Shown: positions 20,783 through 52,769, counted from the stretch's first letter. The stretch: DNA of 64,000 bases from Vermamoeba vermiformis (GCA_045837725.1 JBEWZL010000011.1:496001-560000); one strand, 5' to 3'. The notes: a model not told the origin generated them from the sequence alone. Made by a program: numbers and translations.

Positions 20783-21814
20783 CGGATCTAAAGTTAATTA
20801 AATTATTAGATTTTATAATTTTACAATCTAGAGCACTGAAATGGAATCTGTATAAGTCCTTCGATCATAATTGTAACGGATATTAATGCGCTATGATTAC
20901 GAAAACGATGATCTACCCTTTTAGACGTTTCTTTTTCAACTCAATAAACTTGTTCCACTTGCCTTTTCTCATCATAATATGCTCTTCTAAAATTCTTATC
21001 TTGCGTACTACGTTCGAAATAAATCACTAACCGGGATGATCTGAGATCTGGTGAATGACGTTTGATGCTCGTGACTACGGTTCCTATGACAAAAATCAAT
21101 ATAAATTATTATTGAATTACGTTTACTAACTTGGATTGGCGCAATAGCTTTGTCAGATCTCTTCCAGTAGCAAGGATCAGATCCGCACTGGCGATTAAGT
21201 AATTCGCTAGGCTTGTTGAGAGAACTTGAAGAAAAAAAAGACAATGCATTCCACAATGCACAAACATCATCGTTCACATCGCCCAGAACCGGATGTTCTC
21301 TCGTCTCGTGTGAACCTGCTTTTGTGCGTCTGGCAAAAAAACATTTGTTTTACGAGCCACAAAAATAAAAATCGTATACGATGTCAAAGCGGCTTGACCG
21401 CCCAAATCACCAATGCAGCCGTCGACGGAGACAATCTAGTGTGACACGTGTCAGACAAATAAGATTTCATTTTTTATCTACTAGTGAAGGGTATTACAGA
21501 TAGTGCTTCAAAACTCGACTAAGCGTAATAATTGCGTGCTTCTTATTGTGCCAGAACAAAGAATCTCGCCTACATTTTGCGCTCGTAAGTTTAGTTTACA
21601 CGTTAAAAGTATAATACAACTCGATAATTATGGTCAATTAGTATAGGTTGCTGAGCGGGTTAGGTGTCTGTCTTCAGTTTACTTTTGTTTTCTCAAACTT
21701 TTTCTTCGCGTTGGTTTTTCATTAGTGTCATCTTCGTCCATGGGTGCTGGAGGAGGCACCTCTTGTTCTTCTTTTTTATTGTTCCGCTGATTTTTGCGAC
21801 CTCGAGGACTCTTT

Positions 21815-24111
21815 TTAGTCGGCACTAGCGGCGTTAACCCGCTCTTGGTACTCGCGCATTTCACGCTCGTAGCGCTCTTTGTCTAGTGCGGCTTGTTGTT
21901 CGTAAGGCTGCAGATACAAAAATAGAAGTGTTAATAATTATCATAGTCGGAGATGTTGAACAATGTAATTAAATACAAGATTGGGTGTATAGAAAAAATG
22001 ACACGTGTCAAACTGATTTTTTCACGGTGTCAAACTCTGCCTCCCTCGTACTTATGACACGTGTCATATTCTAAATGTAACTTCGTTCAATGATATCAGC
22101 CGTGTCATAGCTTTTCGATAACGATTTGGTACCGTAGATAAAATGAGAGTTTGACACGTGTCATGAAAATATTTTTCACGTGTCAAAAAAGAATTGTACC
22201 TGTTTTTGTTCTGCAGTCATGTCCCTCCAACGAGCACTTAACAGCCTAGCTTCTGAACCGAAAGGCGTTTCAGCAGGTAAGGTCGGTCGCACTTCCTTGC
22301 AAAAGAACAAGTAAGGCGACCAAGGTCTCTTCGGTTGGTTTGGATCTCGTCTTTGTTGTGCATTCGATAATCGCGGAATATTGTCATTATCCACACTCGA
22401 TTCTTCGTCGCTGCTCGATGATTCATTTTCTTCGGAGTCTGATCCGGATTCGGATTCGCTCTAAAAAAATTAGAAAATAATTTCCTCGAACAGAAGCATA
22501 AAAAACTTACGTCGTCGCCCTCCTCAGACTCTTCGACAGTTTTACGACCTCGAGTGCCTTTAGTCTTAGTCTTCTTTTCCTCCTGGTCTTCAGGCGCGTT
22601 CATTCGTGCTTTGTACTCGCGCATTTCACGGTCGTACCGCTCTCGGTCCAGTGCTGCTCGTTGAACGTACGGCTAGCGGAATAATTATTGAGTCAGTATT
22701 TGAAATTTTGCAAATATTCTAGCACATAAAAAACGGAAATTATTCCCAGGTAAGGTTAGTCTAAAAAGAATGATAAAAGTGACACGTGTCACCAAATTTG
22801 CAGGGGTGGCACCTTTGAGTACATTTAAATGACACGTGTCAGCATGTCATAATAAATATCTTTTGACGTCAAAAGCAATTAGAACCTAAAGAACGTCTAG
22901 TCTCGATGACACGTGTCACTCAATATTTTTCACGGTGTCAAAAAATACTATCGTGACAGTTTCACTGCTGTCGTACCTGTTTCTCTTCATCGCTCATGCT
23001 CTTCCATCGCTCACCTAGCATTTTGATTCGTTGCGCGATTGGCACGTCGGGCTTGAAATCAGATCTGCCTTCAGCGGCAAAGAGCATGTAGGCTGTCATG
23101 GGTCTCTTTGGAGCATTCAAATCACGCGTAATTCGTCTTTTGATATGTAGGCGAACCTTATTGGGATTATCTTCGTCTTCTTGATCCGATTCGCTGTCCA
23201 AATCCTGAATCTAGCGTAAGAATTTTGTTTCAATTTGAATTTCTGAAGAATTGAACTTACGCTATCACTAATCCTATCAAAAGATGGCTTTGGTCGCATT
23301 TTCCCGCCTTTAGCGATAAATTCAGCCACTTCCCTGTCGTACCGATCGCGATCTTGTTTGGCTTTTTGATCGTACTCCTTTAAAATTGTGTCATTACGCT
23401 TGGTATAATATAAATATAATATACATACTTTTTTATCTTCTTTGCTCATACTCTGCCAGAGGTTTTTCCGTACACTGGTAAGCTGCGGCATGCTCAACGA
23501 CGGATTTTCAGCTAACAATTCTTCTCGCTTTTCTTGCAAGAATATACCATAAGCACCACGATATCTGCATGGTATTAATGGCAGATCCATTTTGGCTTTC
23601 TTTTTCTCTGGCTCGTCCTAAAAGAAAAAAAGATCAGGATGCAAACTAGTTAAATCGCTTAACAATTGCAATTAAATCTTGTATTAAAAGAGCATGTATT
23701 CATTATTGTTAAACACTTGCCTCGTCATTTGGAGAATTATCGGCTCTTTTACGCTTTCTCGAGTTATTTCCCGCCTCTTTTTCAGATGCAGCTTCCTAAT
23801 GAATAGTTAATTACTTGATTATCAATTTACGTGCAGTACATATAATACTGGTAATATAAGCGAATTATTTGGCGTTGTTAAGAAATTCTAAGTAATTTCT
23901 TAATTACTGCTGATATTTTTCTATTGTACGTCGTTAAATTTGCAATAAATATGATAATTAATAATTATATACGTACTTTAATATTTGCGAGCAGATTTTG
24001 CGCTTGTTGAATTAAATTGTTCGTGGAATTAGTGTCTGTTAAACCACTGCCCTTGATCTGCTCTACTGACTCTTCAATACTCTTGAATATACTATATAGT
24101 GTAGTCTCCAT
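21815..24111 (-). CDS. Protein with three HMG boxes, multi-exon
   Basis: YRGAYGIFLQEKR...W, APKRPMTAYMLFAAE...LGERWKSMSDEEKQ|PY and QPKRPWSPYLFFCKE...RWRDMTAEQKQ|PY. Confidence 0.9.
21999..22918. repeat. Two intronic arrays of the palindrome TGACACGTGTCA, three perfect copies each
   Basis: Perfect copies at 21999, 22055, 22152, 22780, 22830 and 22907, plus TTTTTCAC(G)GTGTCA variants. Confidence 0.95.
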
Positions 24112-24380
24112 ATTGTTAGTATTGAAATTATCACTTAAAATGCCGCAAACGACAGCTTGTTTGTTTTCTGGACCAACAGCTCACTTTTAACTTGCATTGT
24201 TTTTGATCGTTTGTGCCAAATAGAATTTAGTACTGGTAAATAAACGTTTATTTATACGACAATAGGTTATAATTTAAATCATTTTTATTGAATTAGGCGA
24301 TCCAGGATCGAGATCGGCATATTTTTTTTGAATTACAATCGTATGTTAAACAAGATCGATTATATGACGATATAATATTA

Positions 24381-50800: not shown

Positions 50801-50865
50801 AGAGTCTGAACACAAAAACGACTCAAATTAACTTCGCCTTGCATATCTTAGCCAACCCCGATTAG
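44808..50865 (+). CDS. Class I-like phosphoinositide 3-kinase: ubiquitin-like N-terminus, two PH domains, RBD-like region, C2, helical and kinase domains
   Basis: [78 protein letters not shown] and [11 protein letters not shown] patterns YLFMKP...KRYFCV and [14 protein letters not shown]...LRKWIVAM. Confidence 0.93.
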
Positions 50866-50921
50866 AATAAATAGCTGTCGATTCAATTACAGTATTTATA
50901 GAAGACTTTAAACAAAATCGC

Positions 50922-52769
50922 TTAATGTTTGTGAGCGTGCGCGTGTGCGTGCGAATGACCGTGGTGATGATGTGCGTGGTCGTGAGCATGATCGTGGGCG
51001 TGTGAGTGATCGTGAGCGAGTGCGTGCGCGTGGTCATGAGCGTGTCCGTGGTCATGATCGTGATCGTGCATATGATCGTGCTCGTGATCATGGTCGTGAT
51101 CGTGTCCGTGCGCGTGAGCGTGTTCGTGGTCATGATCGTGATCGTGATCGTGAATATGAGCGTGATCGTGGTGAACGCCCTTCACGTGTTCAAGAGGAAC
51201 GTGCACGTGACCATGGCCGTGACCGTGGCCATCGTGATCGTGATTGTGAGCACCAGATCCGTGCAAAGCAAAGATGGATACACTCATGAAAAGCATACCA
51301 ACAGCTGTCCACAACATAACGCGCTATTGAAATGGTGAGTCTCAGGCATTTTTTCACGGATTGAACGGACGTACCTCGGCAGTCATGTACTTCAAAGCAG
51401 TGGGCAACAATTCACGCAAACTAACCAACACCATGATGCCAGCAACTAATTAATTGACGTTATTACTAGCCGTAGATGGTATAATCAGTCCTCATGACGT
51501 ACCACCAGCCAAGAGTGACTTGACGACGTAATCGTTCATGTATTGCGAGAAGAAAATTCCGAACACGAGAGCACCGAGAGGCTCGCAAATACCGCTGACG
51601 AGGCAGTACTTGAATGCTTGCCACTTGCTGTCAGTACAATAATGAGATAATTGTCCAAATAAGACACGTGTCAGCTAGCTTTGACGTACCTCTTGGTCGA
51701 GTGGTAAATAGGCGAGGCAACAGCAGCACCTTCGGGGATGTTGTGCGCGGCAATGGCAAGCATCAGTGCAGCGCCGAACTCAATGCCTATAAAAGGAAAT
51801 TTTCAGTGAATGTTCAACAAAGTCATGTCCTTCGGATGCGTGATTTCTTACCCTTCAAGCACGTGACATAGACAGCAATGCCCTCGGGAATGTTGTGCAA
51901 ACTAATGCCAAGAGCAGTCACAAAGCCAACACGGCCGACTTGACGCTACATTATATAAGGGTCATATTAATATAGATCTATTACGACCGAGTAGAAACAG
52001 GTGTCAAAATACCTGCTCAGCAGTTTGTGCGTCAACAGCCTTCTTCGGCTTAGCTGCACCATTAGCTTTGCCGTTGTTTTTTTTCTTAGCGGACGTGTTT
52101 TTATTTCCATTTTTGGCTTTGTTGCCATTTTGCTGCGCGTGTTCGTGACCTCCTTCGTCGTGGTCGTGACCGTCAGGGAAGAAGTGAGCGGCAAGACCGA
52201 AAAGGAACATTCCAACGAAGAACTACAATGCGTTAATATAATAAAGTAAAAGATGGTCAGATCCGCAAAAAGCGATCGAAAAAAAAGAATCAATTCTTAT
52301 TTTATGCTGATTAACGTTATAATTAATTATCAATTCTTACCCATAAGTTAGCCATTACGTAACCAATTTCTTCTTGAGCTTCCGGTAAGAGATCCATAAA
52401 TGAGATATACAGCATTACACCGCACGATGAACTCAACATAATGCCGAGTTTATTCGCGCTAGGTGCTCCAAAAAATATAACGAGCAAGCCACCTGTAAAA
52501 TAATTGAATTAGAGGTCTGTGATTTGTCTCGATAAATAGAAAATCGCAATCAAAATTATATTTGATCATGGAGATAATCAAACGAATTATTAATTGCATA
52601 TATTAAATACCAATGCAATATAAATAATATTTGGCGCGTGGATAAAATAATAGATCTGACGTGGCTAAAATTCTGATCCTTAAATTAACTGTCACATACC
52701 AATAGCTGTGGACATGCCGCTAATAAAGGCCAAAGCGAACGCTTGCCAGTTCCAAGCCACAGCGCTCAT
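50922..52769 (-). CDS. ZIP-family (ZupT/GufA-like) metal transporter with a long C-terminal His-rich tail
   Basis: GVMLYISFMDLLPEA, GISLHNIPEGIAV, AIAAHNIPEGAAVA, SGICEPLGA and AGIMVLVSLRELLP. Confidence 0.92.
50925..51265 (-). repeat. Coding hexamer repeat (CACGAT/CATGAT/CACGCT-like) encoding an (HX)n tract
   Basis: About 53 His residues alternate with D/A/G/E over ~113 codons (manual count). Confidence 0.95.

Follow-up and report, generated by a model that had tools for sequence, protein, structure and literature searches.

A perfect 12-bp palindrome with a CACGTG core recurs in introns and intergenic DNA of Vermamoeba vermiformis: a putative site of a dimeric DNA-binding protein

Introduction

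Dimers of bZIP and bHLH proteins bind palindromic sites with an ACGT core or of the form CANNTG in very different eukaryotes, as stated in a passage of PMC11267843. The present study describes a word of this shape, the 12-bp palindrome TGACACGTGTCA, in a stretch of 64,000 nt from Vermamoeba vermiformis (GCA_045837725.1, JBEWZL010000011.1:496001-560000). The whole stretch is called the window below, and all positions are counted from its first letter. The word is a genuine, sharply bounded cis-element in non-coding DNA. We see about an even chance that it is a high-affinity site of a homodimeric factor of the bZIP or bHLH type that reads the ACGT/CACGTG core; protein binding, the protein family and transcriptional regulation via the element are inferred by us from the sequence and its context.

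The closest described systems are the G-box/E-box and ACGT elements bound by bHLH and bZIP dimers, which have the same palindromic CACGTG/ACGT core. The inner ten bases of TGACACGTGTCA are GACACGTGTC, which appears in the relevant section of one study as a G-box/ABRE (abscisic acid response element)-like motif enriched in drought-induced promoters of Arabidopsis (PMC4417316). A high-affinity probe for HES2 includes the related sequence ACACGTGT, according to an excerpt of a preprint (bioRxiv 10.1101/2024.01.24.577115). In contrast to such sites, all 12 positions are essentially invariant in the window, most copies are intronic and not promoter-proximal, and arrays of three are found in enlarged introns.

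A further likeness is that to the unfolded protein response elements (UPREs) of Hac1/HacA. In the part of PMC12310822 that deals with them, two elements are described, UPRE-1 (CAGCGTG), which has a one-base spacer, and UPRE-2 (TACGTG). Beside UPRE-1, ACACGTGTCCT is quoted there as the strongest site of Aspergillus niger HacA. The sequence ACACGTGTC, which is contained in TGACACGTGTCA, makes up 9 of the 11 nt of this site, and a satellite form in the window with a central insertion, CACGGTGTCA, resembles the spacer-containing UPRE-1. However, the UPREs reported in that part of the source are only partly palindromic, whereas TGACACGTGTCA is fully symmetric, with the halves TGACAC and GTGTCA. In addition, the genes that host or neighbour the copies (HMG-box, Kelch-kinase, PI3K, Ras-domain, ZIP) are not recognizable endoplasmic reticulum stress genes, and most sites are intronic.

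A short perfect palindrome that is dispersed and far more frequent than expected is also known from cyanobacteria. HIP1 (GCGATCGC) is 15- to 300-fold over-represented, and the source text describes it as an 8-bp bacterial word that is tied to DNA methyltransferases and, in some genomes, averages more than one copy per gene (PMC5861425). TGACACGTGTCA, for which the excess was established within 64 kb, differs from HIP1 in that it is eukaryotic, 12 bp long and exonic in none of ten cases, and it is found in DNA with a CpG observed/expected ratio of 1.21 and no sign of CpG methylation.

A literature search with TGACACGTGTCA, its 10-mers and its 8-mer yielded no account of the word as a dispersed genomic element. 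In the library searched, the exact word stood only in two papers on Ebola virus, and the 10-mers and the 8-mer in plant, fungal, bacterial and primer contexts. Judged by its symmetry, core and location, the word probably belongs to a kind that is already known, the G-box/E-box or ACGT-core sites; the degeneracy of such sites is what it does not display. What makes it notable is that the word is invariant, that arrays of it stand in introns at paralogous positions of an HMG-box gene, and that there is evidence for local copying.

Results and Discussion

A single palindrome in large excess over expectation

Letter-perfect copies of TGACACGTGTCA start at positions 21442, 21999, 22055, 22152, 22780, 22830, 22907, 35209, 45396 and 49346, exactly as listed in a first-pass annotation of the sequence. 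That annotation had also put the chance expectation at far less than one copy in 64 kb, and two kinds of background agree with this estimate. None of 100 dinucleotide-preserving shuffles yielded a perfect copy, and Markov models of orders 1-5, built after the copies had been masked, predicted 0.003-0.014 copies per 64 kb. The word is the top repeated 12-mer of the window. Perfect palindromes of 12 bp number 55 in all; ten of them are TGACACGTGTCA, and every other one has at most two copies. The CACGTG hexamer, which sits at the centre of the palindrome as had been pointed out, occurs 35 times in the window; it is flanked by GA..TC in 12 of these cases, and the other flank pairs were seen once or twice each. 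When one mismatch was tolerated, 14 matches were found (0.12 expected), and with up to two mismatches the number was 19 (2.14 expected in total from the shuffles). Only five matches have exactly two mismatches; two are intronic half-copies and the other three are unexplained. The window has a GC content of about 40%, and CpG is not depleted.

Could the copies be due to chance, or to an artefact of assembly or adapter sequence? The expectation of at most 0.014 copies is opposed to ten observed ones. Moreover, copies lie inside introns whose removal leaves uninterrupted reading frames with contiguous Pfam matches, and each copy is flanked by unique sequence. Nothing was found that speaks for this explanation, its probability is close to nil, and chance or artefact as the source of TGACACGTGTCA is ruled out for practical purposes.

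Copies are located in introns and between genes

For the localization of the copies, a host intron was accepted as verified when it began with GT, ended with AG and left an open frame without interruption after splicing; wherever possible, the Pfam profile coordinates on its two sides had to be contiguous as well. Eight of the ten perfect copies were found to be intronic, two are intergenic and none is exonic, and intron verification at the HMG and PI3K loci thus bore out the split into eight and two that had been proposed. Six of the intronic copies are concentrated in two introns of a gene with three HMG boxes, and the other two reside in introns of the PI3K locus. The two non-coding near-copies and the half-copies likewise lie outside exons. 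The features and their coordinates are compiled in Table 1.

Table 1. Coordinates of the palindrome copies, their host introns and related features in the window
Feature	Position	Strand	Context
Three-HMG-box gene	21680-23620	-	Pfam
Intron A (292 nt)	21908..22199	-	splits HMG box 3 (HMG_box 1-48 and 48-69); perfect copies 21999, 22055, 22152; partial copies 22019-22034, 22094-22109, 22174-22185
Intron B (304 nt)	22673..22976	-	splits HMG box 2 at profile position 48; perfect copies 22780, 22830, 22907; partial copy 22927-22942
37-nt composite unit, reference copy	21998..22034	+	full palindrome, 11-nt spacer, then TTTTTCACGGTGTCAAA
Perfect copy, intergenic or untranslated region	21442..21453	.	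~380 nt downstream of HMG stop, ~660 nt upstream of Kelch-kinase ATG, both genes on minus strand
Perfect copy, intergenic	35209..35220	.	between plus-strand genes; ~87 nt past upstream stop (35120-35122)
One-mismatch copy TGACACGTGTCT	29693..29704	+	in 50-nt intron 29672-29721 of Ras-domain gene
Perfect copy, within 16-bp palindrome 45394-45409	45396..45407	.	in 85-nt intron 45374-45458, PH-domain exons
Perfect copy, 6 nt from acceptor	49346..49357	.	in 53-nt PI3K intron 49311-49363
One-mismatch copy, TGACACGTGTCT in sense	51662..51673	-	in 62-nt ZIP transporter intron 51628-51689, minus-strand gene
Exonic look-alike TGACAGGTGTCA	17708		last exon of kinase gene; Pfam kinase profile positions 186-258
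Exonic look-alike TGACACTTGTCA	49621		PI3K exon, within 515-codon spliced open frame

The introns with single copies (PI3K, Ras, ZIP) have lengths of 50-85 nt. In the PI3K gene, removal of seven introns (52, 53, 46, 55, 53, 48 and 49 nt) resulted in 515 codons without a stop. When the intron with the copy at 49346 was retained, at least 12 stops appeared in every frame, and its flanking exons match positions 67-119 and 119-154 of the PI3Ka profile. The removal of the intron around the copy at 45396 gave 132 stop-free codons, whereas its retention led to at least four stops in the best frame. The PH-domain exons among which it lies are located 5' of the PI3K domains and probably belong to the same gene. 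In the Ras-domain gene the copy at 29693 falls into an intron, about 50 nt long, under all three frame-preserving solutions, and the exons on either side correspond to positions 63-111 and 109-141 of the Ras profile. The next intron of this gene (29815-29900) begins with GTAAGT-CACGTGTCA, i.e., it carries a half-copy at 29821-29829, six nt from the donor. For the ZIP intron a single frame-preserving solution exists, and the neighbouring exons match positions 177-197 and 203-237 of the Zip profile. The intergenic copy at 35209 precedes the inferred ATG of the downstream gene (35364) by about 145-155 nt, the gene ends being read from the sequence. Both intergenic copies, 21442 and 35209, could belong to 3' untranslated regions (3' UTRs).

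The statement of the first-pass annotation that none of the sites is exonic holds for the perfect copies. It does not hold for the one-mismatch matches at 17708 and 49621, which that annotation had missed and both of which are exonic; the last exon of the kinase gene, in which the former lies, was confirmed by a Pfam match. In both matches the central CACGTG is destroyed, and they were therefore treated as look-alikes. How much the absence of perfect copies from exons means is a different matter. A model-free test against open frames gave p=0.046 when counted by site and p=0.32 when counted by locus, and the word, when read across, has an in-frame TGA in one of the three frames on either strand. 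Because of these modest p values and the stop in one frame, the absence from exons is real, but alone it is only weak evidence. A codon-bias coding map, which flags just 24% of the window and is too weak for annotation, was negative at all 12 non-coding copies and gave values of +3.1 and +4.3 at the two exonic variants. An automatic intron finder was also applied, which proposed 85 candidates including many spurious long ones, and its length statistics were discarded as too noisy.

In the window as a whole, the copies are distributed over eight loci between 21 and 52 kb; the first 21 kb and the last 12 kb contain none. The non-coding placement, together with the clustering of full and partial sites described below, is what is expected of a putative regulatory element.

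Near-copies and half-copies

The population of non-coding sites consists of ten perfect copies, two with one mismatch and two with two mismatches. The two 11/12 matches at 29693 and 51662, in the Ras-domain and ZIP introns as annotated before, are the same variant: on the sense strand of its host gene each one reads TGACACGTGTCT, and only the outermost base differs from TGACACGTGTCA. Half-copies of the form CACGTGTCA start at 22177 and 29821, at the places where partial copies had been suspected. Partial copies of the form TTTTCACGGTGTCAAA are present at 22019 and 22927 in the HMG introns, and a further partial copy covers 22094-22109. The satellite partial copies CACGGTGTCA contain one extra base at the centre. 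Two copies extend to 16 bp, TATGACACGTGTCATA at 22053-22068 and TTTGACACGTGTCAAA at 45394-45409, and both extensions had been noticed earlier. Because TGACACGTGTCA is palindromic, testing the orientation of full copies is impossible; the asymmetric partial copies are mixed, four pointing one way and one the other. A side observation concerns the variant TGACACGTGTCT, which has the same orientation to transcription in both host introns and lies at a distance of 16-21 nt from the donor. The altered base makes a branch-site-like word, CTAAT, in the Ras intron. As there are just two cases, these observations may be a coincidence.

Arrays in two enlarged introns of a three-HMG-box gene

The densest occurrence of the word is in the three-HMG-box gene. 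For this gene a unique GT..AG solution was found, in which the introns are 304, 50 and 292 nt long and the open frame has 246 codons, and all three HMG boxes are split at the same place, position 48 of the Pfam profile. The intron of box 1 is small (candidates of about 42-90 nt, e.g., 51 nt) and has no copy. The introns of box 2 and box 3 are five to six times longer than usual, and each contains three perfect copies. Between copies in intron B lies the sole cyclic AMP response element (CRE) word TGACGTCA of the window, as part of the 16-bp perfect palindrome CTTTTGACGTCAAAAG at 22860-22875. Tandem Repeats Finder (TRF) detected no tandem array within the HMG introns.

An alignment of introns A and B showed similarity only at the motif copies. 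At these places the similarity exceeds the word itself in a 37-nt composite unit, the tail of which follows the pattern TTTTTCACG(G)TGTCAAA. Two further copies of the unit were found at 22906-22942 (84% identity to the reference copy) and 22151-22187 (70%). The differences are confined to the part outside the palindrome, 0 of 24 positions in the 12-mer compared with 17 of 50 in the remainder (Fisher p=7e-4, with the caveat of ascertainment, as the unit was found via the 12-mer). In contrast, the proteins encoded by HMG boxes 2 and 3 have only 38% identity (25 of 66 residues). In view of 84% identity of the unit and 38% of the boxes, the duplication of the boxes cannot have left the unit behind as a neutral relic. 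Either it was copied after that event or it is under strong constraint.

In intron A, a perfect inverted pair of 17 nt (21998-22014 and 22148-22164), with its members 133 nt apart, bounds a segment of 167 nt. In intron B the corresponding pair has 14 nt, and 12 nt of the pair of each intron are inverted by definition of the palindrome. An extended half, GTGTCAAACT, is present three times in intron A, in direct and inverted orientation.

The gene offers a natural experiment, as the intron positions are homologous, one intron has about 50 nt and no motif, and two have about 300 nt and are packed with it. A comparison of these introns could reveal the origin of the site clusters, whether such clusters make introns longer, and whether one and the same word acts at the level of both DNA and RNA.

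Sharp borders, and the possibility of copying

The flanks were compared over 2 x 30 nt anchored on 12 sites, i.e., the ten perfect copies and the two non-coding near-copies; the exonic variants were omitted. In the resulting 66 pairs the mean best identity was 18.5 of 60 nt, compared with 17.5 at random positions. A single pair, 21999/22907, exceeded the null maximum of 29, with 30 of 60 nt, because both copies lie within the 37-nt composite unit. The borders of TGACACGTGTCA are thus sharp at 12 bp and the flanks are unrelated. Target-site duplications were sought as direct repeats flanking the 12 sites, and these were at chance level, with at most two sites matching at k=2 and none at k>=4. 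The lack of related flanks and of target-site duplications makes the footprint of a transposon unlikely. The pattern TGACACG...CGTGTCA was searched for as well, as it would mark a split site or the ends of a transposon; the only nearby pair, at 53023 and 53370, stands in unrelated sequence without extension of the inverted repeat, and coding-like stretches that match an AAA domain lie between the two.

With miniature inverted-repeat transposable elements (MITEs), foldback elements and introners the copies have in common that a sequence is repeated in introns, and the 167-nt segment with its 17-nt perfect inverted ends may add to the likeness. Unlike such elements, the dispersed copies have neither target-site duplications nor homology in their flanks or interior. 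The introns have just the 12-mer in common; near-full-length homology, as among introners, was not found, and sequence common beyond the short word, as among MITEs or foldback elements, is confined to the 37-nt unit in the HMG introns.

These results bear on an explanation in which the copies are recent products of a self-copying micro-element or of palindrome-driven duplication, and not independently selected sites. The underlying process could be ectopic conversion, mobility of a foldback or MITE-like kind, or the repair of a cut palindrome from a template. Only two substitutions across the 12 non-coding copies would fit recent copying, and so would the unit that is conserved between introns of far more diverged exons, as if it had been copied after the box duplication. 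The threefold presence of GTGTCAAACT and the inverted ends of the 167-nt segment point in the same direction. However, the six dispersed single loci have nothing in common beyond the 12-mer, and the presence of a motif does not make a mini-intron about 12 nt longer: the lengths are 53, 50 and 62 nt with it and 46-55 nt in the neighbouring introns. Tandem arrays are absent from the introns according to TRF, and decayed relics are few. A length of 12 bp is also far below that of any known transposable unit. We therefore regard copying as a general explanation for the word as rather unlikely. The suggestion of the first-pass annotation that the word might be the footprint of a tiny mobile element has to be divided accordingly: for the dispersed copies it is not supported, but copying on a local scale did take place in the HMG introns.

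Pairing at the level of RNA

A palindrome is self-complementary also in a transcript, so that any two copies in one pre-mRNA can pair. Every copy may be transcribed, as part of an intron or of a probable 3' UTR, and the element might act as RNA. In the HMG introns of about 300 nt, a stem formed by the outer copies would exclude about 130-150 nt as a loop and bring the splice signals closer together, in a genome in which introns normally have about 50 nt. Long yeast introns are a precedent, as complementary 'zipper' stems pair distant segments and shorten the effective intron length; the predicted distant pairing would have the same result in a genome with short introns. Differing from the yeast case, TGACACGTGTCA is also found as single copies and between genes, and the introns with one copy have no structure.

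In either long intron the predicted fold joins copy 1 to copy 3; the z-scores are -3.18 and -3.48, and one of 200 shuffles was as good in each case. The complementarity extends past the palindrome, to 17 perfect nt in intron A and 14 nt in intron B. The two introns, with 292 and 304 nt, are by far the longest verified ones, the 12 others having 46-86 nt, and both intergenic copies are located shortly downstream of stop codons. Against these points it has to be considered that the low fold energies are not independent evidence, because a palindrome that is present three times will pair in whatever fold is computed. No unusual structure was predicted for the four introns with one copy or for the intron with the half-copy (z=+0.65, +1.73, -0.17, -0.48 and +0.01), and a lone 12-nt palindrome cannot fold on itself stably. 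In addition, no Rfam family reached threshold for the motif introns, the HMG introns giving seven weak matches that were all far under the cut-offs, and the asymmetric partial copies, as described above, are mixed in orientation. Action at the RNA level is thus quite unlikely to be the explanation of the word.

A putative site of a homodimeric factor

A site for a dimeric protein had been among the proposals of the first-pass annotation, and it is the one that agrees best with the symmetry, the core, the sharp borders and the adjoining half-sites; the degeneracy that is usual for such sites was not seen. Because every copy is a symmetric double-stranded word with an ACGT/CACGTG core, TGACACGTGTCA is most likely the site of a homodimer that reads this core together with its GA..TC (TGA..TCA) flanks. 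Candidate readers would be a bHLH(-Zip/Orange) factor or a bZIP protein whose half-site is of the ACGTGTC type. In this case the long HMG introns could represent homotypic clusters with three full sites and weaker half-sites each, i.e., an intronic enhancer or silencer, and the lone sites in mini-introns and between genes may act on compact neighbouring genes. The satellites CACGGTGTCA and the adjacent CRE palindrome would be understandable if the reader were bZIP-like and accepted more than one spacing.

Several observations are consistent with this proposal. The mismatch that is tolerated is restricted to the outermost base, and the variants with a broken core are exonic. The half-sites adjoin full sites, and the only TGACGTCA of the window is found among them. 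The introns with a single copy (n=4) and the half-copy intron are without unusual RNA fold.

Other points weigh against a homodimer site. The population of sites is nearly non-degenerate, so that the degeneracy which a weight matrix describes is missing. Ordinary transcription-factor sites vary more than the copies of TGACACGTGTCA, and the footprints of bZIP and bHLH proteins rarely specify all 12 positions. Several copies lie deep in genes, in introns of about 50 nt and distant from promoters, e.g., the one at 49346 about 4.5 kb into the PI3K locus. The first and the last part of the window are free of copies despite many intergenic regions there. The identities of 84% for the composite unit and 38% for the HMG boxes point to copying and not to selection alone.

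A chromatin organizer, also among the proposals of the first-pass annotation, would be a special case of protein binding. The word might be the site of an architectural or general factor instead of a gene-specific regulator. Examples would be a boundary or nucleosome-excluding factor, a determinant of replication origins or recombination hotspots, or the recognition of small cruciforms by HMG-box proteins. The very high information content of an invariant word fits such a role, and so does the scattered placement in deep introns and between genes, unrelated to promoters; the strongest array is within a gene for an HMG-box chromatin protein. On the other hand, the spread over the window is uneven, with all eight loci in 21-52 kb, and no feature of the window ties the sites to boundaries or origins. 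Furthermore, a stable cruciform needs stems longer than 6 bp. An architectural role is unlikely on balance.

The invariance and the signs of local copying could also be combined in a more far-reaching interpretation, in which TGACACGTGTCA is a eukaryotic highly iterated palindrome restricted to transcribed non-coding DNA (introns and UTRs), and a process of its own both multiplies the word and preserves every letter of it. This interpretation is improbable. One such process would be cutting or binding by a sequence-specific dimeric protein that promotes local copying in direct and inverted orientation. The resulting arrays would lengthen the introns, and the pre-mRNA would then be folded by them, as in the HMG-box gene. 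If this were true, the word would stand for a new kind of intron-resident micro-element, distinct from transposons and from ordinary transcription-factor sites alike.

If the density of about one copy per 6 kb held for the whole genome, the genome would contain thousands of identical 24-bit sites. They would be a very clean means of finding the protein dedicated to them, together with its regulon, in a eukaryotic lineage that has been little sampled. If TGACACGTGTCA were the site of an ordinary factor, the value would mainly be that of annotation, with a strong candidate cis-element and a candidate intronic enhancer.

Occurrence of the word in prokaryotic genomes

A scan of prokaryotic genome contigs for a pattern of two TGACACGTGTCA copies retrieved 12 loci in bacterial and archaeal metagenome-assembled genomes (MAGs), with GC contents of 34-69% and without relation to the window. 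The contexts are diverse. In MAGs of Prevotellaceae the word is part of tandem repeats of 21-22 nt, in MAGs of Casimicrobiaceae hairpin repeats of the form CACCTC-TGACACGTGTCA-GAGGTG bound units of 74 nt, and in contigs of Ktedonobacteraceae, Anaerolineales and Thermosphaera it forms operator-like pairs. The sequence contexts show that the word apparently serves elsewhere as a prokaryotic repeat or operator-like word.

Other genes and repeats in the window

The window is gene-dense, intron-rich eukaryotic DNA with GTAAGT and GTACGT donors and CTAAY-like branch sites. Pfam matches revealed genes for a mitochondrial carrier, a Kelch-plus-kinase protein, the three-HMG-box protein, a PUD1_2 protein, Kelch, F-box and Ras-domain exons, BTB_2 paralogues, ELO, PI3K, the ZIP transporter, coiled-coil proteins and ETF-beta. 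A bZIP or bHLH factor is not among the proteins that the window encodes. In protein searches with the Kelch-kinase, ETF-beta and the mitochondrial carrier, metagenome or read-archive proteins came closest, at 73-98% identity, and the hits that carry a species name were distant or bacterial. The Kelch-kinase gene (17598-20782, minus strand) combines Kelch repeats with a TKL-type kinase, has a hydrophobic N-terminal start and apparently one short intron near its 3' end; its closest database relatives are environmental proteins with 79%, 55% and 44% identity. The ZIP gene contains a histidine-rich stretch of repeated CACGAT/CACGAC-type codons at 50940-51270 (minus strand), which yields several other repeated 10- to 14-mers and CACGTG at 51183 and 51204. 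Between 36900 and 39300 lies a small BTB_2 family of the K-tetramerisation type with N-terminal exons at about 36912 (plus strand), 37994 and 38974 (both minus strand). These exons were found as inverted repeats of 42-44 nt with 76-82% identity, and their Pfam BTB_2 matches are weak. A tRNA-Arg(TCT) at 12808-12880 (minus strand) is the only match in the window by Rfam (gathering score) or ARAGORN.

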